Source: Candidatus Aquidulcis sp.
GTDB taxonomy: Bacteria; Chloroflexota; Anaerolineae; UBA4142
Assembly: GCA_020723345.1 (NCBI GenBank)
Contig: DYJA01000002.1
Coordinates: forward strand, 137,544 to 201,543
Length of the DNA: 64,000 nucleotides
Direction of reading: 5' to 3'
The position numbers and the translations under genes were made by a program. The notes beneath the pieces are model-generated. The model was not told the DNA's origin, searched no databases, and was given only the letters and a program-made list of their open reading frames with translations. Below are positions 8,514-64,000 of the stretch, piece after piece (the first letter of the stretch is position 1; each line of letters starts with the position of its first letter).

Positions 8514-8586
8514 GGTGGCCATAGCTCAATGGCAGAGCGTCTGACTGTGGATCAGAAGGCTGCGGGTTCGACACCCGTTGGCCACC
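8514..8586 (+). tRNA. tRNA-His (anticodon GTG)
   Basis: Cloverleaf folded by hand. Extra G-1 (8514) opposite discriminator C (8586), acceptor GTGGCCA/TGGCCAC, anticodon loop cTGTGga, T-arm GGGTTCGACACCC. No encoded CCA. Confidence 0.9.
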
Positions 8587-8669: not shown

Positions 8670-8742
8670 GCGCCTGTAGCTCAACGGATAGAGCATCAGT
8701 CTTCGGAACTGAGTGTTGGGGGTTCGAGTCCCTCCAGGCGCG
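8670..8742 (+). tRNA. tRNA-Arg (anticodon TCG)
   Basis: Acceptor GCGCCTG/CAGGCGC, D-arm tagctcaacggatagagc, anticodon stem tcagt/actga with loop cTTCGga, T-arm GGGGTTCGAGTCCC. Confidence 0.9.
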
Positions 8743-14302: not shown

Positions 14303-14902
14303 ATGACATTTGCCGAAAAACCACTCCAAACTCTCCTCGACGAACTCGCGTCCGCCGAGCCCGCGCCGGGCGGCGGGACCGTCGCGGCGTTGAGCGGCGC
14401 GCTCGGCGCGGCGCTCGTCGCGATGGTGTGCCGCTTGACGATTGGCAAGAAAGGGTACGAGGCGGTCAGCGCGGAAATGGAAACGATCCTGCCGCGCGCC
14501 GACGCGCTGCGCCGCGAACTCGCCGACTCGATGCAAGCCGACACCGATGCGTACACGCGCGTGATGGCGGCGTATGGGTTACCCAAGACGAGCGATGCCG
14601 AAAAAGCCGCGCGCGCCCGCGCGATTCAAGCCGCGCTCCAACATGCGTCTGACGTGCCGCTGCGTGTCGCGGACGCGTGCGCGCAAGTACTCGACCTCGC
14701 GCGCGTCGTCGCGGCAAAAGGGAACAAGAACGCGGCGAGCGATGGCGGCGTCGGCGCGCTGATGGCGGAGGCGGGCTTGCGCGGCGCGGCGTTCAACGTC
14801 ATGATCAATTTGAGCAGCATCAAGGACGAAGCATTTGTCCAAGATCGCCGCGCGCGCGTCGCGCGATTACTCGCTGACGTCGAAAGGGATAAGAAGGGAT
14901 AA
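14303..14902 (+). CDS. Cyclodeaminase/cyclohydrolase family protein (FTCD C-terminal-like, methenyl-THF cyclohydrolase-like)
   Basis: LLDELASAEPAPGGGTVAALSGALGAALVAMVCRLTIGKK. The last codons (DKKG-stop) lie inside the following repeat. Confidence 0.85.
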   Translation: MTFAEKPLQTLLDELASAEPAPGGGTVAALSGALGAALVAMVCRLTIGKKGYEAVSAEMETILPRADALRRELADSMQADTDAYTRVMAAYGLPKTSDAEKAARARAIQAALQHASDVPLRVADACAQVLDLARVVAAKGNKNAASDGGVGALMAEAGLRGAAFNVMINLSSIKDEAFVQDRRARVARLLADVERDKKG

Positions 14903-15007
14903 GAGGGGATAAGAAGGCAGAAGAAGGCGGGGAAGGCGGAAAAGGCGCGCGCCCTCCCAGCCCTCTTCGCCCTCTACGTCCTCTTATGCCCCCTCATCTC
15001 TTCTAAG
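14884..15007. repeat. Long imperfect palindrome of gataagaagg/gcagaaggc units
   Basis: gggataagaagggataagaggggataagaaggcagaagaaggcggggaaggcgg ... ccctcttcgccctctacgtcctcttatgccccctcatctcttc. Confidence 0.8.
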
Positions 15008-20764: not shown

Positions 20765-21517
20765 ATGAAAACATACATCATTCTTCCAACGTACAACGAA
20801 GCGCAAAATCTCGATCCGATGGTCAATCAATTGCGAGGACTCGCGCTCCCCGATCCGCATATCTTGATCATCGACGACAATTCCCAGGATGGCACGGGCG
20901 CAATCGCCGATAGATTGCGCGAGCAACATCCCAATTGTATTGCGGTGTTGCATCGTGCGGGCAAACTGGGTTTGGGCACCGCGTATGTGACGGGGTTTCG
21001 ATGGGCAATCGAGCAAGGCGCAGACTATATTATCCAGATGGACTGCGATTTTTCTCACTCACCCAGTTATCTCCCCCAATTCATTTCCAGAGTGAACGAG
21101 TACGATGTGGTCGTCGGCTCGCGCTACGTCCCCGGCGGCAAACTCGATCCGCGCTGGAGCGGCTGGCGCTATTTTCTCAGCAAATGGGCGAATAGCGTTT
21201 GGGTGCGATTTATTTTGGGAACCCAGGTTCAGGATGCGACCGCGGGTTTCAAATGTTGGCACCGCCGCGCGCTGGAACGCATTCCTCTCGAAAGCGTGCG
21301 TTCTAACGGTTATGTTTTCCAAGTCGAGATGGCGTACTTGTGCGAAAAACTGGGGATGCGGATTCTCGAATGGCCCATTTATTTTGAAGATCGCCGCATT
21401 GGTAAATCCAAGATGACCGTCCCTGTGAAACTCGAAGCCGCGTGGCGCGTGCTTGAGATTCGTCTGCATCACGGCGCGTTGAAACATTCGGCGCGCGTTG
21501 AGTCCCAACGTGTCTAG
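20765..21517 (+). CDS. GT2 polyprenol-phosphate sugar synthase (Dpm1/GtrB-like)
   Basis: [59 protein letters not shown]. Start moved from 20681. Confidence 0.9.
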
Positions 21518-24500
21518 ACGCGATCTTTGGATCGGGTTGTTTTTCGTCGCGCTGTCCGCGCTTTTTTTTGCGCCGGTTGTCTTTGGCGGCGCGACGCTCA
21601 TTCCATTCGATAACCTCTTTCGTTTTCCGCCGTGGCGCATGTTCGCATTCCAGTTCGGCGTGACGACGCCGTACAACGAACTCGCGAGCGATCTCCTCCT
21701 CGAAAATTACGCGTGGAAACAATTCATCGTCGAGTCGCTGCGCGCGCAAGAAATTCCGCTCTGGAATCCGTACCTCTTTGGCGGCGTGCCGTTCCTCGCG
21801 GCGGGGCAGTCTTCCGCGCTCTATCCTTTCAATATTCTATTCTACCTTCTGCCTCTTGATCGCGCGTTTGGCATTTTCGTCGCGCTGCAACTCGCGCTCG
21901 CGGCGATTGCGATGTTTGCATTTATGCGCGTGCTCGGCGTCAGCCGCTTTGCCGCGACGATCAGCGCGATCACGTACGCGTTCAGCGCGTTCTTCTTCGT
22001 CAGCACGACATTTCCGATGGTGATCGCCGCGGCGGCGTGGCTGCCCGCGATTCTCGCCTGCGCCGAGTTGGTGATTCGCTCGAAGGATTCCGCGCGGCAA
22101 ATTTTCTGCGCGCTGCTCGGCGCGATTTTTCTCGGTATTCAATTTCTCGCGGGACACGTCGAGATTTCGATGTACGTGCTGATCGTCACCGCGTTTTATT
22201 CCGCGTGGCGCGGCGTCTCACTTGTCATTGCGAGGAGCGGAGCGACGAAGCAATCCCCAACTCACGAATTGGAGATTGCTTCGCAAAGACCGCTCGCAAT
22301 GACAGCGCGCGTCGCGTGGCGCGGCTGGTTTCTCATCGCGGCGATGACCGTCGTCGGGATCGCGCTCGCCGCGGTTCAACTGGTGCCGCTGTACGAACTC
22401 GTGCAGAATAATTTTCGCAGCGGCTCGGCGTCGTATCAGGACGTGATCGGTTGGGCGTACCCTCTCAAACAAATCATCACGTTTTTCATTCCCGATTTCT
22501 TTGGCAATCCCACACATCATTCGTACTTTGATATTTTCGATTTAACGCCGCGCGCCGCGCCGACCGGCACGATTTTCTGGGGCGTCAAGAACTACGTCGA
22601 GGCAGGATCGTACGTCGGCATCTTGCCGTTGCTGCTCGCGCTGATCGCAATCATCTCACGCATCACGCATCACGCATCACGTAACACGCAGAACGCTGCG
22701 GCGAGCGTTCCCTACGCATCTCTCAACTTCCCCATTGCTCTTTTCGCAACCCTCGCGATCATTTCGCTCTTGTTCACTTTCGGCACACCGCTGTACGCGA
22801 TTCTTTTCTTCGGCGTTCCTGGGTTCGATCAACTGCACACGCCCTTTCGTTGGGTCTTTCCATACACGCTGAGCGTGGCGGCACTGGCGGGGATTGGCGC
22901 GCAAGTTCTCAGTCAACAGTCAACAGTCAACAGTCAACAGTCGAACCGCGTCATACGTTTCACGTTTCACGTCTTACCTCTGCTTGCGCTTACGATTGGT
23001 ATTGTAGTTCTCTTTGCTCTCACGGCGTCCTGGCTTTTGCGCGATCAAACGCTCGTGTTGGCGGAGCGAATCCTGCGCGCGTCCAACACCGCGCAACTCG
23101 CGTTCGATAGTGGGCGAATGTTCTACTCGTACGAGTTTCGCAACGTCGCGCTCTTTGCGATTTTTCTTATCGGCGCAGGCATTGTTCTTCACGCAACACG
23201 CATCACGCATCCTTCGACTGCGCTGCGCTCCGCTCAGGACGCGTCGCGCACCCCGTTTCCGCTTTGGCAACTCCTCGCGCTCTTCGTCCTCGTCGCCGAT
23301 TTGTTCGTTATCGGCACGCAATTCTATCCGCGCGCGGATTCGCGCCTCGCCGAGTTCGTGCCGCCTGCCGTGAAATTTTTGCAGCAAGACAAATCGCTCT
23401 ATCGCATCACGAGTTACGACGCGTCGGGCGAAAAAATGTTCAACCCGAATGTCGGAATGTTCTATCACCTTTCCGACATTCGCGGCTATGATTCGATCAT
23501 CCCGAAACAGTACGCCGAATTGATGGGCGCGCTCGCGCCGCAGGGCGAATTGCTTTACAATCGCATCGCGCCGTTCTACAATCCCGATCCGCTCGATTCG
23601 CCGATCATCAATTTGCTCAACGTCAAGTACGTTTTGACGACGCGTCCGCTGCCGAACGCGGGGTACACGCTCGTGTACGACGACGAGATCAAAATCTATC
23701 GCAACGCGCGCGTGTTGCCGCGCGCGTTCATGGCTCCGCAGGCGCGCGTCATTTCTAACCGCGCTGCGCTGCTCGCGCAAATGAAAGAATTCGATCCGAC
23801 GCGCGAGGTGTTGCTGGATCAAGACCCAGAAATCGCGAGTCCGTCGTCGTGCGCGCTCAAGCCCGTGTCCATCGAAAAGTACGGCGGCAACGAAGTGATC
23901 GTCAAGAGCAAACAGGATTGCGCGGGCTGGCTCGTCCTGACTGATTCGTACTTCCCGGGCTGGCTCGCGCAGATTGACGGCGAAGATGCCGCGCTCTATC
24001 GCGCCAATTACAATTTCCGCGCGGTCTACGTTCCCACGGGCGAGCACACGATTCGATTCAAGTACAGCCCCGTCTCGTTCCGCGCAGGCGCGATTGGATC
24101 GTTCCTCGGCGCGATGGTGTTGCTGCTGGGATTCGCGTACCTCGCGTGGCGAAGATTTTATCGCGCCGATCAAGAATCGCAAGCGATCACCGTCGCCAAG
24201 AATTCGATCTTGCCGATGGCAACGTCGCTGCTGATGAAGTTGATCGATCTCGCCATGGCGATGTTCATGTTGCGCGTTTTGGGTCCCGTTGGCACGGGTC
24301 GGTACGGTTGGGCGGTCACTGTTTGGTTGCTCGCCAACGCGATCACCGATTTCGGTTTGGGCATTCTCGTCACGCGCGAAGTTTCGCGCGACCGCGCGCA
24401 GGCGAATCGTTATTTGACGAACACCGCGATTTTGCGGTTTCTGTTGTGGGCGGCATCGTTGCTGCCCGTCGCCGCGCTTGCCGCGATTTATTTTGCGTTC

Positions 24501-25616
24501 TTCGATCTCACGCTTGACACGGCGGGCGCGCTCGCGCTCTTGATGATCGGGATGCTGCCCAGTTCGCTGTCCGCGTCGCTCGCGTTTCTGTTCAACGCGT
24601 ACGAAAAATTCGAGTACCGCATCGCGGTCGATTTCACGACGCGCTTGCTCGCGGTCGCGCTCGGCGTGGTTGTGCTGGTCGCAGGGTATGGCTACGTCGG
24701 ATTGGCGACCGTCTCCATCGTCACGAACATTTTTACGCTCGCGGCATTCTTCTATCTCGTTCGCACAACGCTCTTTACGCCGCGCTGGGAACCCGACCGC
24801 GCGCTTGTGCGTTGGATGTTCTTTGAATCGTATCCGTTGATGCTCAATAATTTATTGTCGTCACTTTTCTTCCGCATCGACATTTTGATTTTGAAACCGT
24901 TCAAAGGTGATGCCGTCGTTGGTTATTACCAGACCGCGTACAAATTCATCGATGCGCTCAATTTCATTCCCTCGAATTTTACGCTTGCGATTTTCCCCGT
25001 TCTATCACGGATGGCGGCGAACGCCAAAGACGCGATGCTGCGGGCGTACGTCCTGTCGCTGAAAATTTTGTTGTGGATCGCGCTGCCGATCACCGTCGGC
25101 ACGATGTTCATCGCGCGCGAACTGATTGTGTTTATCGGCGGCGACGCGTATTTGCCTGATTCTGCGATTGCGCTCCAAGTGCTGATTTGGTTCCTGCCGT
25201 TCAGTTTCATCAACAGTGTGACGCATTACGTTTTGATCGCGCTGGGGCAGCAGCGCTTTTTGACGAAAGCGTTTGTCATCGGCGTTACGTTCAACGTCAT
25301 CGCAAACCTGCTCGCGATTCCGCCGCTCAGTTATGTCGGCGCGTCGCTCGTCACGATTTGTTCCGAGATGGTGCTGCTGATTCCGTTCTACTACAGCGTG
25401 CGGAAAAATCTCGCGGCGGTGCCGTTCGTGTCAATCGCGTGGCGACCGGTCGTCGCGTCGGGTGTGATGGGCGTTGGTTTGTGGTGGCTCGTCGAACACG
25501 TCGGCGTGCTGTTTTCGATTCCACTCGCGGGGATTTTGTACGCAGTCATTTTGCTCGCGCTGGGCGCGCTGGGGGAAGATGAACGCGCGGTGTTGAAGAA
25601 AATTCTGCGACGGTAA
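21498..25616 (+). CDS. Fusion protein: YfhO-type GT-C membrane glycosyltransferase (about 880 aa) plus MOP/Wzx-type polysaccharide flippase (about 480 aa)
   Basis: N-terminal part: [28 protein letters not shown] and C-terminal YfhO signature [46 protein letters not shown]. It then continues without a stop into [39 protein letters not shown]... with about 12 further TM helices. Start may be GTG 21510. Confidence 0.85.
22224..22303. mobile_element. MITE-like palindromic element inserted in frame in the YfhO-flippase gene
   Basis: Termini GTCATTGCGAG ... CTCGCAATGAC, inner pair gaagcaatc/gattgcttc. Flanked by the 13-bp direct repeat cgcgtggcgcggc at 22202 and 22313 (111 nt apart). Confidence 0.8.
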
Positions 25617-32232: not shown

Positions 32233-32261
32233 GACAATAGAAGGAAATTGAATAACAAAAA

Positions 32262-32468
32262 CCGCGGGGGAGAATTCCAAGTTGGCTCAAAAAAAACTTG
32301 GATACCGAAGGGGCAAGCCAGATAGTTGCCAAACCGTTTGGCGAATCTCTCAGGTCACGGGACCCCGCAGAAATTTTCTCTGGAAAGTTGGACCCGCTGT
32401 AGCGTCCAACGCCGATGGGGCAAGCCGCGCGGATTTACGGCGAATCTCTCAGGCGATCCAACAGAGAA
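32262..32468 (+). promoter_or_regulatory. Tandem glycine riboswitch (two aptamers)
   Basis: Aptamer 1: GGGGGAGAA...ACCGAAGGGGCAA...AATCTCTCAGGtcacGGGACcccgc. Aptamer 2: CTCTGGAaAG...GCCGAtGGGGCAA...AATCTCTCAGGCgatccaACAGAG. Both match the class consensus cores and sit upstream of the glycine-cleavage genes. Confidence 0.9.
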
Positions 32469-38743: not shown

Positions 38744-40105
38744 ATGACCCATCGTTTCATTCCCAACACCGATGCCGATCGCGCTGCAATGCTACAGACG
38801 ATCGGCGTTGCGTCGGCGAAAGACTTGTTCGCGGACGTGCCGCAGGACGCGCTCTATCCAAAAATCAAACTGCCGAGCGCGTTATCCGAACTTGACTTGA
38901 TGCGCGAACTGCAAACGATGTCGGCGCGCAACGCGAACGTCAACGAACGCGCGTGTTTTCTCGGCGCGGGCGCGTACAACCATTTCATTCCCGCGACGAT
39001 TCCGCATCTCGTTTTCCGCAGCGAGTTTTACACCGCGTACACGCCGTACCAAGCCGAAATCAGCCAGGGCACGCTGCAAACGATTTTCGAGTACCAGTCG
39101 ATGATCTGCGCGCTGACCGGCATGGACGCGGCGAATGCGTCGCACTATGATGGCGCGACGGCGGCGGCGGAAGCCGCGATCCTCGCGATCAATCAATTGC
39201 CCGGACGAAACAAGATTCTCGTGTGTCCGACTTTGCACCCGGAATATCGCGCGACGATTCGCACGTACCTCGCCGGGCACGATATTGAAATTGTCGGCGA
39301 CGAAGACACAAGCGCGACGTTCGAGCAAATGGTGGACAAACATCTCGACGATCGGACCGCGTGCGTGATCGTCGCAAATCCCGACTTTTTGGGACGCGTG
39401 CGCGACTTGAAGCCGTACGCGGATCGCGTGCACGCGGCAGGCGCGCTTTTCGTCGTCAGCGCGTACCCGATTTCGCTTGGCTTGTACCAAGCGCCGGGAA
39501 ATTATGGCGCGGATGTCGTCGTCGGCGAAGGACAATCGCTTGGCAATCCAATCGCGTTCGGTGGACCGTACCTGGGAATTTTCGCGACGAAAGAAAAATT
39601 CTTGCGGCGCATGGCGGGACGCTTGGTCGGACAAGCGACGGACACGAAGGGGCGGCGCGGTTTCACGCTGACGTTGCAGGCGCGCGAGCAGCACATCCGC
39701 CGCGAAAAAGCGACGTCGAATATTTGCACGAATCAGGCGCTATGCGCGCTCGCTGCGTGCGTGTATCTTTCGACGCTCGGCAAGTCGGGCTTGCGCCAAG
39801 TCGCCGAGTTGTGCTATCACAAAGCGCACTACGCCGCGAACAAGATCAATCGGCTCGTTGGCTATCGCGTGAATATGAAGCAAGAATTCTTCAACGAGTT
39901 TGTCGTCGAGTGCCCGCGCCCGGTCGCGGAGATCAACGCGGCGTTGCGCGAGCGAGGAATTATTGGCGGATACGATCTATCGAAAGATTATCCGCATCTT
40001 GGGAATGCGATGTTGGTTGCGGTAACAGAGATGAACACGCGAGAACAAATTGACGCGTTTGCAAAAGCGTTGGGAGAAGAGATAAGAAGGCGGAAGAAGG
40101 GATAA
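38744..40105 (+). CDS. gcvPA: Glycine dehydrogenase (decarboxylating) subunit 1
   Basis: 453 aa. FLGAGAYNH, YTPYQAEISQGTLQ, SHYDGATA. The final codons RRRKKG-stop lie inside the following repeat. Confidence 0.95.
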   Translation: MTHRFIPNTDADRAAMLQTIGVASAKDLFADVPQDALYPKIKLPSALSELDLMRELQTMSARNANVNERACFLGAGAYNHFIPATIPHLVFRSEFYTAYTPYQAEISQGTLQTIFEYQSMICALTGMDAANASHYDGATAAAEAAILAINQLPGRNKILVCPTLHPEYRATIRTYLAGHDIEIVGDEDTSATFEQMVDKHLDDRTACVIVANPDFLGRVRDLKPYADRVHAAGALFVVSAYPISLGLYQAPGNYGADVVVGEGQSLGNPIAFGGPYLGIFATKEKFLRRMAGRLVGQATDTKGRRGFTLTLQAREQHIRREKATSNICTNQALCALAACVYLSTLGKSGLRQVAELCYHKAHYAANKINRLVGYRVNMKQEFFNEFVVECPRPVAEINAALRERGIIGGYDLSKDYPHLGNAMLVAVTEMNTREQIDAFAKALGEEIRRRKKG

Positions 40106-40200
40106 GAAGACATAGAAGGGATAGAAGGCAGAAGAAGGCGTAGAAGGCGAAAGAAGGCGCGCTGACCTCTTGCCCTCTTCGCCCTCTTAGCCCTTCTGAG
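40081..40200. repeat. Long imperfect palindrome of gataagaagg/gcagaaggc units
   Basis: gataagaaggcggaagaagggataagaagacatagaagggatagaaggcagaagaaggcgtagaaggcgaaagaaggcg ... cctcttgccctcttcgccctcttagcccttctg. Same family as 14884 and 58596. Confidence 0.8.
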
Positions 40201-46263: not shown

Positions 46264-46326
46264 TCCACGAAGGACACGAAGGGACACGAAGAATTTTTCC
46301 TTCGTGATCTTCGTGCCCTTCGTGGA
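46264..46326. repeat. Hairpin of cacgaagg units
   Basis: tccacgaaggacacgaagggacacgaag-aattttt-ccttcgtgatcttcgtgcccttcgtgga. Same unit family as 49003-49066. Confidence 0.8.
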
Positions 46327-48947: not shown

Positions 48948-49084
48948 GGGCGAAACATTCGCCAAATCCTGTTGGTGGGCAATAGACTTGCGGGAATAAT
49001 TTGTCCACGAAGGACACGAAGGAGCACCAAGTTTTTTCTTCGTGTTTCTTCGTGCTCTTGGTGGACGAATGTTTTGCCCTTACA
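48945..49084. repeat. Composite element: GTAGGGGCGAAACATTCGCC...CGAATGTTTTGCCCTTAC with a nested cacgaagg hairpin
   Basis: Outer inverted repeat plus inner hairpin gtccacgaaggacacgaaggagcaccaag-ttttttc-ttcgtgtttcttcgtgctcttggtggac (49003-49066). Confidence 0.8.
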
Positions 49085-49157: not shown

Positions 49158-51917
49158 GTGAATGATTCCCCAAATCCGCACGTCCCAGATTGTCCCTACG
49201 TCGGCTTGCAACCATACTCCGAAGCCGAACGCGAATACTTTTTCGGTCGCGAGCAAGACACCGAAACGATTGCCGCGAACTTGCTCACCGCGCCGCTGAC
49301 GTTGCTTTACGGCGCGAGCGGCGTCGGCAAAACGTCCGTGCTTGCGGCAGGCGTTGTGCCGTACTTGCGCGCGATGCCTGATGTACTTGTTGTTTTGTTT
49401 CGGCAGTGGCAGGACAGCACGTTTCAAGATGTGCTGATGAACGACGTTGATACAACGGTCTACTACTCAAGAGCCAAACTGCTGAGTAATAGGACACCGC
49501 TTCCGTTCGACGAATTCCTCGCGCGCGCGGCGCAAGAAACCAACCGCACGCTCCTCATCATCCTTGATCAGTTTGAAGAGTATTTTCTCTATCACCCTAA
49601 CGGAAATCCGTTCGAGGAGCAACTCGCGCGTGCGATCAATAGGGGCGACGTGAACGCAAATTTCATTCTCTCCATGCGCGAGGACGCGCTCTCACAACTC
49701 GACCGCTTTGAAACACGGATTCCCAACTTGATGAGCAACTATTTGCGCTTGGAGCATTTGGACCGCGCTGGTGCAGGGCGCGCGATTCGCAAGCCGCTGG
49801 ATGTGTACAACGCGCGCCGAACTGACGCGTCCCCGATAACGATCGAAGACGCGCTGGTGGATGCGTTGATTGAGCAAGTTCGCACGGGACGCGTGACGCT
49901 GGGGCGCGCAGGGCAAGGCGAAATTGCCGTAATGCAATCCGCCGACACGCGCGATACGCGCATTGAGGCGCCCTTTCTGCAAATGGTCTTGACTCGTCTC
50001 TGGGAGGAAGAAACTCGTGCCGGCGCGCGCAACCTTAGACTTGCAACCTTGAACCTCCTTGGTGGCGCTGAAAAAATCGTGCGAACGCATCTGGACGAAG
50101 TAATGAACAGATTGCGCGCGCCGGAGCAAGAAGTTTGCTCCACCTTCTTCGACCGATTGGTCACGCCGTCGGGCACCAAGATCGCGCAGAACGCCGACGA
50201 CCTGGTGACGTATGCTGCGCGTTCCGCTGCTCAAGTCACTCCCATTCTCAAGAAACTTGCCGACGCGCGCGTCCTGCGTCCGATTGCGCCGCCGCTGAAT
50301 CAGCCCCAGGTCGCGCGCTATGAGATTTTTCACGATGTGATTGCGCCTGCGATTCTGGATTGGCGCAGACGTTTCGTTGATCGCAAGCGCGTTCGTCGCT
50401 TGGGATTGATTACGCTGGGGGCTGTTTTGCTCGTGGTGGTGTTCAGTTTGTTGTCGCTCTTTGCGTTCCAGCAAATGTTGAATGCGCAGGATGCCGAGGG
50501 GCGCGCGATTGTTCAACGCAACGCAGCGGCTACTTCGGAAGCGCGTGCGGTAACGCAGGAAGCGAGCGCATACCAGCAACGCGCCGAAGCGCAGAATCAG
50601 GCAAACGCGCGGGCTACGGCGGAAGCGCAGGCATTGGTTCAACGTGATGCGGCAGAGAAATCCAAGGGTGAAGCGCTCACTCAACAAAAGATCGCCTTTT
50701 CGCGTGAATTGGCGGGGATAGCGCTCGCGCGATTGCCTGTTGACCCAGAACAAAGTCTGCTCTTGGCTCTCCATGCCGCCGAGATTTCTCCGACTGAACA
50801 GGCAGAGGACGCCTTGCGCCAATCATTGCGCGGGTATGCTTTGCGTGCTGCATTGCGCGGGCACACTGCTAGTGTGTATGCTGGATTCAGCCCGGACGGC
50901 AAATTCATCGTCACGGCAAGTCTAGACAATACGGCGCGTGTGTGGGAGACGAGCACAGGCAAGAGTATCGTTGAACTGCGTGGGCACACCGGTCAGGTGC
51001 GAAGCGCCCAATTTAGTCCCGACGGCAAATTCATTGTCACGGCGAGTCAAGATGGAACCGCGCGGGTTTGGGAGGCGAGTACCGGTAAAAGTATCGCCGA
51101 ACTGCGTGGACATACTGCGACCGTGCGCCATGCCGTGTTCAGCCCGGATGGCAAGTTCGTCGTCACAGGAAGCAATGACTACACAGCGCGCATTTGGGAA
51201 GCCAGCACAGGCAAGAACATCCGGGAACTGCGTTGGCACGGGAGTTCTTTGAGCGGCGTGGCATACAGTCCCGACGGCAAATCTATTGTTACGGTGAGCT
51301 CAGGCGCGGGCGCGCGGATTTGGGAAGCGAGTACAGGCAGAGGTATCTCGGAACTACGCGGGCACACGAAATCCATAAATAGCGTCGCGTTTAGTCCCGA
51401 CGGCAAATTTATTGTCACCGCGAGTTCGGACAATACGGCGCGCGTGTGGGAAACAAGCACAGGCAGGAATATTGCGGAATTGCAGGGGCACACGGATGTC
51501 GTACGAAGCGCGACATTCAGTCCTGATGGCATGTTCGTCGTCACTGGCAGTTCGGATAACACAGCGCACGTGTGGGAGGCAAGCACAGGCAAGAGTATTA
51601 TGGAATTGCGCGGACATACGGGGTACGTGACTATTGCCGCATTTAGTCCGGATGGCAAGTTCATCGTGACAGTCAGTAGAGATGGAACCGCGCGGGTGTG
51701 GGAGGCAAGCACAGGGAGAGGCATCGCGGAACTACGCGGACACACCACTGAAATCAATAGTGTTGAATTCAGTCCCGATAGTAAATTCATTCTCACCGGG
51801 AGCGCTGATTTTACCGCGCGGCTATGGGAGGCGAATAGCCGCGACAGTATTATAGTATTCCTTCGCAGAAACTATCACGACCGCGAAGATTCTTGGGACA
51901 CAGATGAACACAGATAA
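49158..51917 (+). CDS. STAND-like P-loop NTPase, single TM helix, Ala/Gln-rich coiled coil and 8 WD40 repeats
   Basis: CPYVGLQPYSEAEREYFFGREQD, Walker A YGASGVGKTSVLAAGVVPYL, Walker B LLIILDQFEEYF, ILSMREDALSQLD. RRRFVDRKRVRR then TM LGLITLGAVLLVVVFSLLSLFAF. Eight LRGHT...FSPDGK...TARVWE units. The ORF terminates inside a hairpin repeat. Confidence 0.85.
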   Translation: MNDSPNPHVPDCPYVGLQPYSEAEREYFFGREQDTETIAANLLTAPLTLLYGASGVGKTSVLAAGVVPYLRAMPDVLVVLFRQWQDSTFQDVLMNDVDTTVYYSRAKLLSNRTPLPFDEFLARAAQETNRTLLIILDQFEEYFLYHPNGNPFEEQLARAINRGDVNANFILSMREDALSQLDRFETRIPNLMSNYLRLEHLDRAGAGRAIRKPLDVYNARRTDASPITIEDALVDALIEQVRTGRVTLGRAGQGEIAVMQSADTRDTRIEAPFLQMVLTRLWEEETRAGARNLRLATLNLLGGAEKIVRTHLDEVMNRLRAPEQEVCSTFFDRLVTPSGTKIAQNADDLVTYAARSAAQVTPILKKLADARVLRPIAPPLNQPQVARYEIFHDVIAPAILDWRRRFVDRKRVRRLGLITLGAVLLVVVFSLLSLFAFQQMLNAQDAEGRAIVQRNAAATSEARAVTQEASAYQQRAEAQNQANARATAEAQALVQRDAAEKSKGEALTQQKIAFSRELAGIALARLPVDPEQSLLLALHAAEISPTEQAEDALRQSLRGYALRAALRGHTASVYAGFSPDGKFIVTASLDNTARVWETSTGKSIVELRGHTGQVRSAQFSPDGKFIVTASQDGTARVWEASTGKSIAELRGHTATVRHAVFSPDGKFVVTGSNDYTARIWEASTGKNIRELRWHGSSLSGVAYSPDGKSIVTVSSGAGARIWEASTGRGISELRGHTKSINSVAFSPDGKFIVTASSDNTARVWETSTGRNIAELQGHTDVVRSATFSPDGMFVVTGSSDNTAHVWEASTGKSIMELRGHTGYVTIAAFSPDGKFIVTVSRDGTARVWEASTGRGIAELRGHTTEINSVEFSPDSKFILTGSADFTARLWEANSRDSIIVFLRRNYHDREDSWDTDEHR

Positions 51918-52850
51918 ACACAGATAGAAAAATCAGTGTTCATCAGTGTTTATCAGTGTCCAAAAGATTTGGTTGCGGCTATGCTGCGCTATGGATCTGC
52001 GCGGACATACAAGTAAGATCCGGAGCATCGTGTTCAGCCCAGATGGAAAATCTCTCGTGACCGCAAGCGAGGACAACACCGCCCGAGTATGGGAAGCAAG
52101 CACAGGCGCGAGTATCCTTGTATTGAGTGGGCATAAGGGTTTCTTGCGGAGTGTTGCCTACAGTCCCGAGGGCAAGTTCATCGTCACCGCGAGTGGAGAT
52201 TCGATAGCGCGGGTGTGGGAGGCGAGTACAGGTAAGAGTATCCTGGAACTGCGCGGACACACAAAAGATGTTCGCAGCGCCGCGTATAGCCCCGATGGCA
52301 AGTTCATCGTCACCGCAAGCATAGATGGGAGTGCGCGCGTGTGGGAGGCAGGCACAGGTAAGGGAATCATGGAATTGCGGGGGCACGGTATCCATAGCGT
52401 CCTCAACGCCGCGTTCAGTCCGGATGGCAAGCGCATCGTCACGGCGGGCTGGGATGGCATCGCGAAGGTGTGGGAGACAAGTACAGGCAAGAGCACAATC
52501 GAATTGCGCGGACATACACTAGGTTTATACAGCGCCACATTCAGTCCGGATGGCAAGTTGATTGTTACTACCAGTGTGGACGGAACTGTACGGATATGGG
52601 AAGCCAGCACAGGCAAGAGCGTCATCGAATTGCACGCGCACGCAGGTGATTCGCACAGCGCCGCATTCAGTCCTGATGGGAAATATGTCGTCACTGTAGG
52701 TTTGGACGGAAACGCGAGGGTATGGGAGACTAGCACCGGCAAACACATCGTCGAAATATCTGAGGCGACTGCCATATTCAGCGCCGTCTTCCATCCCGAA
52801 GGCAAGTTAATCGCGACTGCAAGTAGCGATGGCGTTGCGCGCATTTACGT
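50853..52850 (+). repeat. Tandem 126-bp (42-codon) WD40 coding repeats, 15-16 units across two ORFs
   Basis: Units LRGHTxxVxSxxFSPDGKFIVTASxDxTARVWEASTGKSIxE are highly similar at the DNA level. Differences cluster just after GHT and around S-x-D-x-T. Confidence 0.85.
51896..51961. repeat. Hairpin of cacagat units interrupting the WD40 array
   Basis: ggacacagatgaacacagataaacacagatag-aaaaa-tcagtgttcatcagtgtttatcagtgtcc. Near-identical core to 57152-57218. Confidence 0.85.
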
Positions 52851-54131: not shown

Positions 54132-54452
54132 AACGCAGTGACGGAGAAACGTAGCGCTTGACGAGATTCCAGAGAGCCGTACAATTCTGAAAAGCCGGCA
54201 TCCACGCAAGCGTGATGAACATCTCCCGAGCGTTTCGGTCCGCTCCCGTTATCGAGCGTCGAGGCGACAACCCGCCGAATGTAATTCGGCGTCTCAAAAT
54301 CTGAAAATCGGCTAGAAGCCGATTGCGCGCCAACCCGATTGATCGGGGTTCCACCTTTTGAGACGGACGATTGCATCGTCCGTTGTCGCGCAGAAAGGTG
54401 GCACACGAGTCCCCCCTCGTCCTTTCATCGGACGCGGGGGAATTTTATTTCA
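54132..54452 (+). promoter_or_regulatory. Probable T-box leader (tRNA-sensing riboswitch) of aspS
   Basis: AGAGAG bulge-like motif near the 5' end and several stem-loops. T-box-like gaaaGGTGGCACacgag (54394-54410), where gaaa/tttc and acgag/ctcgt can form an antiterminator with a UGGC-containing bulge. Competing terminator tcccccctcgtcc-tttcatc-ggacgcggggga followed by attttattt. Specifier codon not identified. Confidence 0.5.
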
Positions 54453-54547
54453 GGCGATCAGGCGACCACGTAATCCGGCGATCAGGCAATCGGGCGATCG
54501 GCAACCGATTGACCGATTGCCTGATTGACCGATCCCTGATTGCCTGC
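54452..54547. repeat. Tandem-motif palindrome (caggcgatc / gattgcctg units) between the leader terminator and the aspS start
   Basis: caggcgatcaggcgaccacgtaatccggcgatcaggcaatcgggcgatcggcaa / ccgattgaccgattgcctgattgaccgatccctgattgcctg. Confidence 0.75.
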
Positions 54548-58595: not shown

Positions 58596-58740
58596 CAGAG
58601 GGATTAGAGGGCATAAAAAGGCAAGAGAGGGCGCAGAGGGTAATAAGGCATAGAAGGTAAGGAGGGCTGAGCCCCTCGGTTGCCTTCGGATGCCTTCTAC
58701 GCCTTCTACTCCTTCTGACGCCCTCTATCCCTTCTGCGTC
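58596..58740. repeat. Long imperfect palindrome of agagggn / agaaggn units
   Basis: cagagggattagagggcataaaaaggcaagagagggcgcagagggtaataaggcatagaaggtaaggaggg ... gccttcggatgccttctacgccttctactccttctgacgccctctatcccttctg. Confidence 0.8.
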
Positions 58741-61330: not shown

Positions 61331-62221
61331 TCTTTCAATCCTTTTCAATCCAAACAATCCATCGGGGCGGAACCACAAGACAATCAGCATAAAGATGTAC
61401 GGCGCGATGTCGCCGAGGTGCAGCGCGCGCAGCGCGGGGTCTTGCGGCAAGCCGCCGACGAGCGACTCGATGACGCCGACGGTCAAGCCGCCGACAATCG
61501 CGCCGGGCACCGATTCCAATCCGCCGAAAAGTACGGCGGGAAATGCTTTGAGCGCGATGATGGACAAGTTGAGTTCGACGCCGCTGATGTTCGCGAGCAG
61601 GACGCCGCACATCGTCGCGACCACACTCGCAATCGCCCACGCCATGCCAAAGATGCGCGGCACGCTCAGTCCAACGCTCTGCGCGAGTTGATGGTCTTCC
61701 GCCGCAGCGCGCATCGCCAGCCCGGCGCGCGTGAATCGGAAAAAGAAAACGAACACGACGAACCCGAGCATCGCCAGCGCGAACGCGAGCGCGAGATTCA
61801 ACTTGAGCCGCACGTCACCCAGGACGAGCGGCTGAATCGGAAAGAGCGCGGGCAGCGAGCGCTGATACGCGCCGAACACGATGATCGCCGCGCCTTGCAG
61901 CGTCTGCGCGAGCGCGAGCGTCATCATCACCGTCGCGAGAATCGGCTGACCGATCAGCGGGCGCAGCGCGACGCGCTCGACCAGCAAGCCGATGAGCGCA
62001 GACACTCCAATCGCGACGGCGAACGCGAGCCACACGTTCCAACCCAGGTTTTCGCTGAACCACCAAGTGGTGAACGCGCCGACCATGAGCAAATGTCCTT
62101 GCGCGAAATTAAAGACGCGCGAGGATTTGTAGATCAGCACCAAGCCAAGCGCGATCAGCGAATAGATGCCGCCGGTCAAGAGACCGGTCGCGAGAAATTG
62201 CGGGAAGAGGTCCCAGTTCAT
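61325..62221 (-). CDS. livH: Branched-chain amino acid-type ABC permease (LivH-like)
   Basis: 298 aa. GLLTGGIYSLIALGLVLIY, FNFAQGHLLMVGAF. Confidence 0.9.
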   Translation of the reverse strand: MNWDLFPQFLATGLLTGGIYSLIALGLVLIYKSSRVFNFAQGHLLMVGAFTTWWFSENLGWNVWLAFAVAIGVSALIGLLVERVALRPLIGQPILATVMMTLALAQTLQGAAIIVFGAYQRSLPALFPIQPLVLGDVRLKLNLALAFALAMLGFVVFVFFFRFTRAGLAMRAAAEDHQLAQSVGLSVPRIFGMAWAIASVVATMCGVLLANISGVELNLSIIALKAFPAVLFGGLESVPGAIVGGLTVGVIESLVGGLPQDPALRALHLGDIAPYIFMLIVLWFRPDGLFGLKRIERI

Positions 62222-62310
62222 TGCTTGTCCCTTGTGTCATTGCGAGCATCCTGAGCGGAGCGGCGTCTGCGCCGCGCAGTCGAAGGATGCGAAGCAATCC
62301 CCGAGTGACG
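62222..62310. repeat. GTCATTGCGAG...GAAGCAATCC element (intergenic copy)
   Basis: gtcattgcgagcatcctgagcggagcggcgtctgcgccgcgcagtcgaaggatgcgaagcaatcccc. Shares termini with the in-CDS copy at 22224. An inverted partial copy lies at about 23212-23250. Confidence 0.75.
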
Positions 62311-62311
62311 A

Positions 62312-64000
62312 TTACAGATTACACACCCGCACCGCCGTCTCGATAACGCCCGCGCGTCCGTCGCGATACTTGACCTGCGCGCTGACGCGCACTTCGGATT
62401 TGCCGCCGTACATCGCCTCGATCAAATCGCGATAGCGCTCTTCCATCACGTTGCGGCGCAGTTTGCGTGTGCGCGTCAGATCGCCTTCGTCGGGATCGAA
62501 TTCCTTGTGGAGCAGGACGAAACTTTTGACGCGCGCAGGCGGCGGCAGCGCTTCGTTCACGCGCGCGACATCCTGCTTGATCAGATCGTACACTTCGGTT
62601 TTCTGCGAAAGGTCGACGAAGGTGGTGTACGTCAAACGATTCTTTTCCGCCCAGCGACCCACGTTCGCAAAATCGATGTTGACGATTGCCGTGACGAACG
62701 CGCGCTCGCGCCCGCCGACGACCATCACGTCCTTGACGTACTGGCTGAACTTGAGTCGCCCTTCGATAAATTGCGGGGAGAATTTGTCGCCGGTCGCGAG
62801 GTCCAGCAAGTCCTTCACGCGATCGAGGTAAATCAAATGTCCGTCGTCGCGCAAATATCCGGCGTCGCCGGTGTGAAACCATCCGTCTTCCAATGCCTTG
62901 GCGGTCGCTTCGGGATTTTTGTAATAGCCCTGGAACACGGATTTGCTCTTGACGACGATTTCGCCTTCGGGTGTGATGCGGAGTTGCACAGCAGGCGGCG
63001 GCACGCCGACTGATTCAAATTTCACGTCGTTGCCGACATGCAAGGTGTGAATAATCGCTTCGGTGGAGCCGAAGAGGTTGCGAATGTTGACGCCGAGCGC
63101 GCGGAAAAAGCGGACGACATCCGGGCTGAGCGCCGCGCCGGAACTGTACGCCGATTTTACGCGGCTCAAGCCCAGTTTGTCGCGCAGCGCGGCAAAGATC
63201 GCGATCTCGCCGAGCCAGCCCAGGAATTGCCAGACGATTGGCACGCTGCCCTTGCCAAAGCGCAGATCGGCGACGCGATAGCCGATGGGCATGAACGTGT
63301 GGTACAGCGCGCGATTGATCCACGACGTATCCGCGATGCGCGCTTGCACCATTGAGACGAGCGATTCCCACAAGCGCGCGCTGAACAAGAGCGCGTGCGG
63401 CGAAATCTCGCGCAGATTTTCTTGCACCGTTTCGGGTTCTTCGGGAAAATTGATGACCATGCCGTCTATCACGTGGATCGCCAGTCCCAAAACATTTTCG
63501 GTGATCCACGCGGGCGGGAGAAACGAAAGATACTCGTCGGTGTCGAGGCGGCGATCTACGCTCGAGGAAATTTCCGCGCCGCCGATTAAATTCTTGTGCG
63601 CGATCATTGCGCCTTTGGGCACTCCCGTCGTGCCGGAGGTGTAACAGAAGATCGCGAGGTCGGCGCCTGTGCCTTGCGCGAGGCGTTCGTCAAAGCAAGT
63701 CGGCGCGCGCTGATCGAGTTTGTGTCCCGATGCAATCAGCGCATCAAAACTCATCAGCCATTCGCCGCCATAGTTCCACAATCCCCGGTCTTGCCAGTAG
63801 ATCGCGCGCCGAATTGCGGGAACGTTCGCGCGAATTTCGAGCATCTTGTCGCACTGTTCTTGATCTTTGGCGAAGACGAGGACGGAATCGGAGTGCTGCA
63901 CGATGTACTGAATTTCGGCAGGCGTGCTGTCGGTGAAGATACCGACCGCGATCCCGCCGCACGCCTGCACCGCGAGTTGCGCCCAGAAATATTCGGGATC
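62312..64000 (-). CDS. AMP-binding acyl-CoA ligase (long-chain-fatty-acid-CoA-ligase-like), N-terminus beyond window edge
   Basis: IFCYTSGTTGVPKGAM, GWFHTGDAGY, LDRVKDLL. The frame stays open to position 64000. Confidence 0.9.
   Translation of the reverse strand, partial: DPEYFWAQLAVQACGGIAVGIFTDSTPAEIQYIVQHSDSVLVFAKDQEQCDKMLEIRANVPAIRRAIYWQDRGLWNYGGEWLMSFDALIASGHKLDQRAPTCFDERLAQGTGADLAIFCYTSGTTGVPKGAMIAHKNLIGGAEISSSVDRRLDTDEYLSFLPPAWITENVLGLAIHVIDGMVINFPEEPETVQENLREISPHALLFSARLWESLVSMVQARIADTSWINRALYHTFMPIGYRVADLRFGKGSVPIVWQFLGWLGEIAIFAALRDKLGLSRVKSAYSSGAALSPDVVRFFRALGVNIRNLFGSTEAIIHTLHVGNDVKFESVGVPPPAVQLRITPEGEIVVKSKSVFQGYYKNPEATAKALEDGWFHTGDAGYLRDDGHLIYLDRVKDLLDLATGDKFSPQFIEGRLKFSQYVKDVMVVGGRERAFVTAIVNIDFANVGRWAEKNRLTYTTFVDLSQKTEVYDLIKQDVARVNEALPPPARVKSFVLLHKEFDPDEGDLTRTRKLRRNVMEERYRDLIEAMYGGKSEVRVSAQVKYRDGRAGVIETAVRVCNL

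Follow-up and report, generated by a model that had tools for sequence, protein, structure and literature searches.

Introduction

Repetitive extragenic palindromic sequences (REPs) with a CGTC tag were surveyed by Di Nocera, De Gregorio and Rocco (2013, BMC Genomics 14:522; PMC3733652). The survey describes units with a CGTC head (or TGTC/CCTC), a stem starting with A-T and T-A and a tail fitting CCA, which occur mostly as inverted dimers with spacers of 20-100 bp or shorter. The class includes dRS3 of Neisseria as well as RPE-4 and RPE-6 of Rickettsia, its hosts include Bradyrhizobium (with atypical loops in CGTC-1), Micavibrio and sphingomonads, and intragenic CGTC dimers encoding 20-30 residues are documented. 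Related repeats were recently connected with GIY-YIG nucleases by Chenal et al. (2025, Nat Commun 16:2388), who name the proteins Ssn and the repeats NTS/SRM. They report that SsnA binds NTS solely as single-stranded DNA (ssDNA) and cuts a few nucleotides upstream, and note a repeat-gene-repeat architecture similar to that of an insertion sequence (IS). NTS repeats are found clustered near certain genes, and they modulate the transformation of Neisseria (PMC11893778). Here, we study a palindromic element of this kind that lies in frame within a gene for a YfhO-flippase fusion protein of Candidatus Aquidulcis sp. (Chloroflexota; contig DYJA01000002.1, positions 137,544-201,543). This stretch of 64,000 nt is referred to as the window, and coordinates relate to it unless another locus is named.

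We regard it as likely that a CGTC-REP/SRM dimer was inserted in frame into a pre-existing loop of the YfhO-like part of the protein and that the 13-mer found on both sides of it is not a transposition footprint, the mechanism and effect proposed below included. A preliminary description of the window had taken the element for a MITE, i.e., a miniature inverted-repeat transposable element, that came with a 13-bp target duplication and added 37 codons. The in-frame palindromic insert is a further example of a known phenomenon, and these particular details (MITE, 13-bp duplication, 37 codons) are unsupported.

Results

Comparison of the insert with orthologous loci

The host open reading frame (ORF, see Table 1) encodes a fusion. 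Its N-terminal part (about aa 1-870) is a YfhO-like GT-C membrane glycosyltransferase and its C-terminal part (about aa 900-1370) a Wzx/Polysacc_synt flippase, with Pfam matches to PF09586, PF01943, PF13440 and PF01554 and NCBIfam matches of Wzx type. Homologues are YfhO proteins of Chloroflexi/Anaerolineae, syntenic orthologous loci among them. In the following, L-numbers (L001, L123 etc.) denote related loci from database and metagenome scans that we compared with the window. The palindrome of 80-82 nt at 22223-22304 lies inside the coding frame of this ORF, as described before; 81 nt of it (22224-22304) correspond to 27 codons.

Directly after the conserved motif AWR (R238, invariant in our alignment A1 and nearly invariant in alignment A3), the YfhO homologues show a loop whose length varies. 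Between R238 and the transmembrane helix that follows, this loop counts 39 residues in the window and in L123/L124 vs 14-15 residues in close uninserted orthologues and 16-19 in most of the distant ones; a few distant orthologues carry other inserts in this loop between transmembrane helices 6 and 7 (TM6, TM7). A MAFFT alignment of the loop segment yields 24-25 extra residues relative to the close uninserted orthologues, i.e., not the gap of 37 residues that had been predicted. More than 40 orthologous loci were compared and about 55 proteins aligned, and the insert is restricted to the window and L123/L124. Uninserted relatives include L125, L127, L131, L133 and L134 from the metagenome scan. 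That is, orthologues without the repeat family at this position lack the segment, in line with what the preliminary description expected of an insertion. The insertion site is filled by different DNA in each related lineage; this also holds for the syntenic loci L001-L003, two of which have heptamer tandem repeats there. From this comparison of sequences, we conclude that the palindrome is a genuine in-frame insertion.

The loci L123 and L124 stem from two samples and are identical over the 251 nt compared. They show 88% amino-acid identity to the window and 80-83% nucleotide identity over 3.6 kb, and they carry the insert at the same place and in frame (AWRGVSFVIARSEATKQSPTRELEIALQKPLAMTVRVAWRGWLL), with 7 of the 81 nt differing. 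Since a relative of 88% identity has the same insert, the insertion would predate the split of window and L123/L124, and the shared insert can be taken to have been gained once, by an ancestor that the respective organisms have in common. Window, L124, L154 and L125 are about equidistant (80-88% nucleotide identity), such that no branching order follows from these. A query of the protein database with the doubled 54-aa insert peptide returned zero matches, i.e., the exact peptide is rare. The earlier view of a dispersed palindromic repeat that was inserted in frame in the YfhO part and is tolerated in a loop is retained, and the frame is also kept in L123/L124.

Position of the insert in the protein

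The hydropathy profile shows an alternating topology with short K/R-rich loops on one side and places the insert in a K/R-rich loop between the sixth and seventh hydrophobic segments. We also inspected an AlphaFold model of residues 1-620, which has a predicted local distance difference test value (pLDDT) of 88 and a predicted template modeling score (pTM) of 0.92. The model shows a helix (221-251), a coil (252-266, with pLDDT below 50 at 260-265) and another helix (267-290). Given these helix/coil boundaries, the arms of the palindrome are predicted to extend the flanking helices, i.e., to form extra turns on TM6 and TM7, and the spacer to be a floppy, disordered tip. The topology check that had been proposed for the insert is thus answered, at the level of a model, by a loop between two transmembrane helices with a low-confidence tip. 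Following the positive-inside rule, the loop is probably cytoplasmic and directed away from the side of the conserved residues D38 and H220/E222.

Table 1. Coordinates of the host gene, the inserted palindrome with its parts, the flanking 13-mers and the intergenic unit within the window.
Feature	Coordinates	Strand	Description	Basis
Host ORF	21498..25616	+	1372 aa	ORF list, Pfam, NCBIfam, syntenic Chloroflexi/Anaerolineae orthologues
Left 13-mer	22202..22214	+	CGCGTGGCGCGGC (codons ..C AWRG), contains near-invariant R238	
Inserted palindrome	22223..22304	.	Tail-to-tail heterodimer of two CGTC-REP/SRM-like units	Inverted repeats, DNA fold, absence from uninserted orthologues
Unit 1	22223..22260	+	Head tGTC, box A ATTGCGAG, variable part GAGCGGAGCGAC, box B GAAGCAATC, tail CCCAA; written whole tGTCATTGCGAG-GAGCGGAGCGAC-GAAGCAATC-CCCAA (plus strand)	
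Spacer	22261..22268	.	CTCACGAA, 8 nt between the two unit tails; encodes the loop tip	
Unit 2	22269..22304	-	tGTCATTGCGAG-CGGTCTTTGC-GAAGCAATC-TCCAA	
Right 13-mer	22313..22325	+	CGCGTGGCGCGGC (codons ..C AWRG), homologous to the second WR/WK motif of uninserted orthologues	
Intergenic singleton unit	62236..62303	+	GTCATTGCGAG, 43-nt hairpin, CGAAGCAATC, then CCCC	

Structure of the palindrome

Rather than a simple hairpin, the palindrome consists of two units of about 35 nt that are arranged tail to tail and have the general form tGTC-ATTGCGAG...GAAGCAAT-CYCC. The outer arms TGTCATTGCGAG (22223-22234) and CTCGCAATGACA (22293-22304) are complementary at 12 of 12 positions and the inner arms CGAAGCAATC (22246-22255) and GATTGCTTCG (22274-22283) at 10 of 10, where the latter can be extended to 18 nt with 89% complementarity. 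Both boxes are conserved between units 1 and 2, and the middle part differs. The variable part of unit 1, GAGCGGAGCGAC, has GAGCGAAGCGAC as its counterpart in the family consensus, and L123/L124 show the consensus GCGAAGC at this place. When folded as ssDNA, the 98 nt between the two 13-mers (22215-22312) reach -27.8 kcal/mol (z = -5.2), and none of 200 shuffled sequences was as stable. For the palindrome region, searches of Rfam, at the gathering threshold for the whole window and in E-value mode for 22150-22380, returned nothing but microRNA-like hairpin matches that are attributable to chance.

Using a relaxed pattern of paired boxes A and B, we find only three units in the window, with 0-1 matches in each of 20 shuffles. 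Beside the two units of the insert, this is the intergenic singleton, which is located in a 90-nt gap between two minus-strand genes, i.e., an acyl-CoA-ligase-like gene with its stop at 62312 and a LivH-like gene with its start at 62221. The preliminary description had reported a copy of the same element family at 62222-62310. It is a real family member, but as a single unit with a 43-nt hairpin in the variable part it forms a different palindrome.

The repeat family and its relation to CGTC-tagged REPs

We scanned species-representative genomes for the pattern GTCATTGCGAG-N(5-35)-CGAAGCAATC and obtained at least 119 matching stretches vs about 30 that we calculate to be expected by chance for the whole collection. 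The matches are clearly members of the family because they share common middles (CGAAGC, GAGCGAAGCGAC) and, in 40 cases, the same head-outward dimer. All following numbers on hosts, composition and orientation are given among the matches listed. These come from Alpha-, Gamma- and Deltaproteobacteria, Chloroflexi, Patescibacteria, Bacteroidota, Cyanobacteria, Planctomycetota and others; many are from Bradyrhizobium, and Sphingomonas, Micavibrio and Helicobacter rodentium are also represented. The 40 aligned dimers are head-outward and combine one short with one long arm. That is, the tail-to-tail heterodimer architecture of the window palindrome recurs in 39 other dimers. By orientation, 39 head-outward dimers compare to 7 other pairs and 91 singletons. 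Over 180 units, GTC is preceded by C in 66% and by T in 29%, and the tail following GCAAT is CCA in 51%. A family unit is composed of a head (C/T)GTC, a stem starting with ATTGC, a G/A-rich centre that is usually GCGNAGC, a return arm GCAAT and a tail C-C-A/C. In the window, both arms have the head TGTC, and the tails are CCC(CAA) and CTC(CAA).

Judged by these motifs, the family of the window element is the CGTC-tagged REP superfamily, also called NTS/Ssn-related motifs. Both the window family and the surveyed repeats have in common the CGTC/TGTC head, the AT start of the stem, a tail near CCA and the arrangement as inverted dimers, often heterodimers, with short spacers. Common are furthermore copies that are intergenic downstream of ORFs or, occasionally, in-frame intragenic dimers of 20-30 aa, as well as overlapping hosts (Bradyrhizobium, Micavibrio, sphingomonads). 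The survey gives stems of 8-9 bp and loops of 4-5 nt, whereas the units studied here show only 5 Watson-Crick pairs (ATTGC/GCAAT) around GA-GCGNAGC-GAA, and it names five phyla, to which the present scan adds Chloroflexi, Patescibacteria, Zixibacteria and others. The likeness is drawn to the class as a whole, with its subclasses CGTC-1 to CGTC-4 left aside. Searching the literature for the 11-mer of the family or its complement, for longer words and for typical peptides translated from the repeat gave no relevant result. We take the centre GCGNAGC to be a GNA-triloop DNA mini-hairpin, which would favour ssDNA structure; presumably, the whole centre GA-GCGNAGC-GAA could stack through G.A pairs plus this mini-hairpin.

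A similar case is given by the Rickettsia palindromic elements (RPEs; Ogata et al. 2000, as cited in PMC3733652), in which a palindrome is translated as an extra segment and retained across species. Likewise, the window insert is found in an intact ORF, is absent from orthologues, keeps the frame and is retained in relatives. The host phylum differs, and the present insert sits in the loop of a membrane protein. The likeness is drawn only through the assignment of RPE-4 and RPE-6 to the CGTC class by Di Nocera et al.

Classical bacterial MITEs (Correia/NEMIS, RUP, Nezha) also are short, non-coding, multi-copy elements with terminal inverted repeats that sometimes lie in genes, and the window element has perfect 12-nt arms at its ends. 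Unlike these, it comes without an abutting target-site duplication and without a related IS that encodes a DDE transposase, and its ends are conserved across phyla. In related loci, the gene between matching ends is typically a GIY-YIG nuclease and not the transposase of a parent IS. What had been called a MITE is not specific to one lineage but a pair of CGTC-type REP/Ssn-related motifs, a family spread over many phyla, and the gap to orthologues amounts to 24-25 residues instead of 37. As a side observation, one Patescibacteria contig (L049, 556-1838) has an IS256/Mutator-type transposase gene (PF00872, E = 1e-7) between inverted units 1.2 kb apart; it is probably an IS that was inserted into a dimer.

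Association with Ssn-like GIY-YIG nucleases

Clustering of the ORFs within 150 nt of the 180 units revealed zero recurrent neighbour proteins, just translations of the repeats themselves. The link to a nuclease emerged only between widely spaced inverted units, e.g., in L063, where a 96-aa GIY-YIG ORF (Pfam E = 6e-18) is enclosed by two inverted units at a distance of 310 nt. The family of its homologues is very large, with about 70% identity across phyla. Units or close variants are found next to the GIY-YIG gene in 8 of 8 independent contexts (L063, L166, L167, L173, L183, L193, L194, L195), within about 170 nt in the seven beyond L063. Often, one unit precedes the ATG by 12-55 nt, and another in inverted orientation begins at the stop codon. 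The Anaerolineales locus L166 has its units at 678-785 and 1098-1205, which flank an Ssn-like gene and read GTCGTTGCGAG/GAAGCAACC instead of GTCATTGCGAG/GAAGCAATC, i.e., their first stem pair has changed from A-T to G-C in a compensatory manner. For plasmid-borne homologues (from Rhizobium, Sinorhizobium, Shinella, Sphingobium, Novosphingobium, Azospirillum, Neisseria, Aeromonas, Spirosoma and Planktothrix), the CGTC variant of the respective lineage flanks the gene in 11 of 12 inspected cases. Finally, the GIY-YIG protein matches the NTS-flanked Neisseria locus at E = 9e-17.

The association of GIY-YIG genes with such repeats is already published (Chenal et al. 2025), and the Ssn proteins are described as site-specific DNases that act on single strands and bind hairpins of this type. 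The present family shares with the NTS/SRM-Ssn system the oriented hairpin repeat, in which the GTC head is conserved and the stem is followed by a C, and, as seen in the related loci, inverted copies that bracket a single-domain GIY-YIG gene of about 95 aa. It differs in that Chenal et al. (2025) mention neither intragenic copies nor Chloroflexi. Another comparable system is REPIN/RAYT (Bertels & Rainey 2011), where also two inverted hairpin repeats plus spacer make up the mobile unit, no target duplication is left and the single-copy gene for a nuclease has these repeats on both sides. In contrast to REPIN/RAYT, the enzyme is a GIY-YIG ssDNase and not an HUH/Y1 transposase, the head is CGTC and not GTAG, and mobility is putative.

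Proposed insertion event

We propose that about 81 nt (27 codons) entered an arginine-rich YfhO loop that already carried two WR motifs, landing between ...AWRGVSL and ARVAWRGWF.... This event would have taken place in the common ancestor of the window and L123/L124 organisms; the frame would have been kept, and both arms would now be translated. Lacking an ORF, the dimer probably derives from a unit-ssn-unit element as a non-autonomous form, and it may have spread by a single-strand process that depends on hairpins and does not duplicate the target. For the enzyme, the insert would be passive cargo and neutral or nearly so.

Several observations weigh against this proposal. A single unit folds no better than its shuffles under nearest-neighbour parameters. 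The published SRM string HGTCWYN(0-2)YYVSBRHN(0-5)WNVSBRGN(0-2)RNCYNB, which matches NTS and an Azospirillum repeat, fits neither the window units nor the family consensus; its head HGTCWY and tail RNCYNB do match when taken alone. Among the proteins of the 64-kb window, an Ssn homologue was not found, and the mobilisation of repeats by Ssn is itself only a hypothesis (Chenal et al. 2025). Nor was an exact empty site found in a near-identical relative: L154, contig Ga0209777_10207865, which is the closest uninserted one and as close to the window as L124, ends six codons past the site, and L001, L002 and L003 are too diverged in the loop to show one. Two further points concern the flanks. The 13/13 nt identity of the AWRG-coding stretches exceeds what a quasi-repeat at protein level requires, and both 13-mer copies end with GGC in the window (22214, 22325) and with GGT in L123/L124. 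Such a parallel C-to-T change hints at a real duplication or a homogenising process. Given 27% third-position divergence in the flanks, we estimate its chance at about 0.1, i.e., it is suggestive but not significant.

Alternative explanations

A real duplication is what the preliminary description had in mind: a MITE of about 98 nt would have transposed into a single CGCGTGGCGCGGC, thereby duplicating 13 bp and adding 37 codons, such that the empty allele would read TATTCCGCGTGGCGCGGCTGGTTTCTC with one 13-mer and the loop absent. As reported there, the exact 13-mer is found at 22202 and 22313, 111 nt apart, and these are its only two occurrences in 64 kb. The two share one codon phase (C + GCG TGG CGC GGC = AWRG), and sharing of 13/13 nt is beyond chance, since the longest common word in 2000 mismatched flank pairs from other family members has 9 nt. 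The third-position variant common to both copies in L123/L124 also fits a duplication, as does one other dimer (L043 at 151) that has an abutting 7-nt direct repeat GGAATTC. However, the 13-mers of the window do not abut the inverted repeat but lie 8 nt from the palindrome ends, separated by GTCTCACT and GCGCGCGT, which do not complement each other and are not conserved across the family. Within the 39 other dimers, the longest match between left and right flank is at chance level (on average 4.6 nt vs 4.4 nt in mismatched controls), and 38 of them show nothing comparable. Excision of 37 codons would leave a loop of 2 residues vs at least 14 in every orthologue examined, while excision of the 27 palindrome codons leaves 15 residues, close to the length in orthologues. 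Furthermore, the second AWRG, which had been thought to be created by the insertion, aligns with WR/WK motifs of insert-free orthologues, i.e., with AWR in L134/L002 (LWR(I/T)FSL(T/I)AWRERIRAG), TWKV in L127/L131 and IWKV in L133. The distant uninserted L137/L140 read WRLVTI(A/S)WR(E/Q)R.WRP, and the DNA of L002 already has TGGCGC twice. A length of 13 bp would also be unusual, given that typical target duplications have 2-9 bp, and the partner between the units of related loci is, except for L049, typically a GIY-YIG nuclease and not a DDE transposase. In view of the alignments, the 13-mer pair most likely reflects for the most part the ancestral WR...AWR quasi-repeat of the loop and is not a target-site duplication, and we consider transposition of a MITE with 13-bp duplication improbable. 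A larger hairpin that includes the 13-mers was rejected by eye, as its arms are GC-rich but not properly complementary.

If the dimer was inserted as proposed, it might still be more than cargo, i.e., the repeat pair could be kept at the nucleotide level as a working DNA element, e.g., as two Ssn hairpins on opposite strands. Such sites would shape recombination or transformation at a cell-surface polysaccharide locus, or the mRNA/DNA hairpin would affect expression. Between window 22224-22304 and L124 1786-1866 (27 codons), the proportion of synonymous differences (pS) is 0.127 and that of nonsynonymous differences (pN) is an ordinary 0.073, vs a pS of 0.37 and a pN of 0.04-0.07 in the flanks. 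Among all 27-codon segments in the 381 alignable codons, the insert has the lowest pS (mean 0.404, minimum elsewhere 0.142) and the highest pN/pS (0.58 vs a median of 0.13). Boxes A, A' and B are identical in both lineages, and the influence of NTS repeats on Neisseria transformation (PMC11893778) offers a precedent. These values stem, however, from only 7 differences and overlapping segments, such that their statistical weight is modest, with a binomial p of about 0.01-0.03 by our estimate. In L123/L124, two changes within box B' of arm 2 are uncompensated, an Ssn gene was not found in the window, and the stretch of low pS also takes in about 50 nt upstream of the insert, which a local recombination tract or gene conversion from other copies could explain equally well. 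The low pS points to constraint at the nucleotide level, to conversion from other copies or to a local tract of recombination, and the pattern argues against simple neutral decay. Recent introgression was also considered as its cause; the identity around the insert is 88-95% and not near 100%, which speaks neither for it nor decisively against it. All in all, we hold maintenance as a DNA element to be rather unlikely, and we give still less credence to the claim that the translated pair is an active element used by a cognate Ssn-type nuclease or another hairpin-binding factor. If true, coding-embedded Ssn sites would tune recombination or transformation, or might undergo excision and re-insertion, at a surface-polysaccharide gene, and the GTCATTGCGAG...GAAGCAATC family would be a good system for testing the mobilisation of repeats by Ssn. 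Finally, the segment could be ancestral to the protein family or an assembly artefact, which we deem next to negligible. Loop length varies in all lineages such that the ancestral state is hard to reconstruct, but the segment is restricted to the window and L123/L124 among the loci and proteins compared (more than 40 and about 55, respectively), it is made of two units of a dispersed repeat family, and it was recovered in independent assemblies from different samples.

Further repeats in the gene, its relatives and the window

A single 26-nt unit of the family, GTCATTGC(G/C)AG-CGCAGC-GAAGCAATC, is present in frame at a different site of distant YfhO orthologues (L135 2922-2947, L136 3462-3487, L140 3528-3553). 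This second, independent in-frame insertion is read in a different frame from the window copy and adds about 8-9 residues (YTLVYDD(E/K)-MSL(R/P)AQRSNL-LIYRN).

In other close relatives, the TM6-TM7 loop is encoded by other palindromes or by heptamer tracts. The loop of 14-15 residues in L125 is itself encoded by a palindrome with 15-nt arms, AAACCTTCGAGGTCT-cca-AGACCTCGAAGGTTT, and those of L127, L131 and L133 by CAGACCTTCCAG...CTGGAAGGTCTG. The DNA folds of these four loops have z-scores of -4 to -6.6. The TM6-TM7 loop thus seems to collect hairpin-forming DNA repeatedly.

The host ORF furthermore contains heptanucleotide tandem repeats, namely TCACGCA x5 (22656-22690), CAGTCAA x4.7 (22910-22942), ACGTTTC x2.6 (22955-22972) and TCACGCA x3.3 (23189-23211), which encode short inter-helix loops (including RITHPS...). 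Due to the period of 7 nt, a change by one copy shifts the frame. The heptamer tracts differ between window and L123/L124, while the palindrome insert is common to both. In L001 (3700-3950, P0033), the closest database orthologue, YfhO is called as two overlapping ORFs split at the TM6-TM7 loop. The split falls within a GTCAGGG-like heptamer tract, and L126, which shows no difference over the 264 nt compared, keeps a continuous frame there; frameshift/phase variation or an assembly error could be the reason.

Distinct from the CGTC-type insert is a system of composite palindromes, in which short tandem arrays of 8-10-mers are followed by arrays of the complementary unit, e.g., CACGAAGGGA x2.7 then CCTTCGTGA x2.9, or ACACAGATAA then ATCAGTGTTC. 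In the window, these are located at 14884-14985, 40075-40194, 46266-46324, 49006-49054, 51898-51959, 54450-54546 and 58676-58736. Two arrays with a period of 126 nt (50885-51715) look, from a reading of their consensus, like WD40-type coding repeats. At Rfam gathering score, two tRNA genes and a glycine riboswitch are found among 8515-8586, 8670-8742 and 32257-32375.

Discussion

Read as an in-frame insertion of a CGTC-REP/SRM dimer, the locus is a well-documented example, from outside Rickettsia and Proteobacteria, of how a hairpin repeat is translated within a conserved membrane enzyme and was kept across a species split. It indicates where such proteins may tolerate extra sequence, i.e., in the short loops between transmembrane helices. 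The locus also illustrates that a direct repeat beside a palindrome is not necessarily the footprint of a transposition.

Beyond the single gene, the comparison ties the window repeat to the Ssn single-strand nucleases that were described recently. The published search pattern misses a very widespread variant of the Ssn target motif, which is relevant to surveys of such repeats and to the question of their spread.

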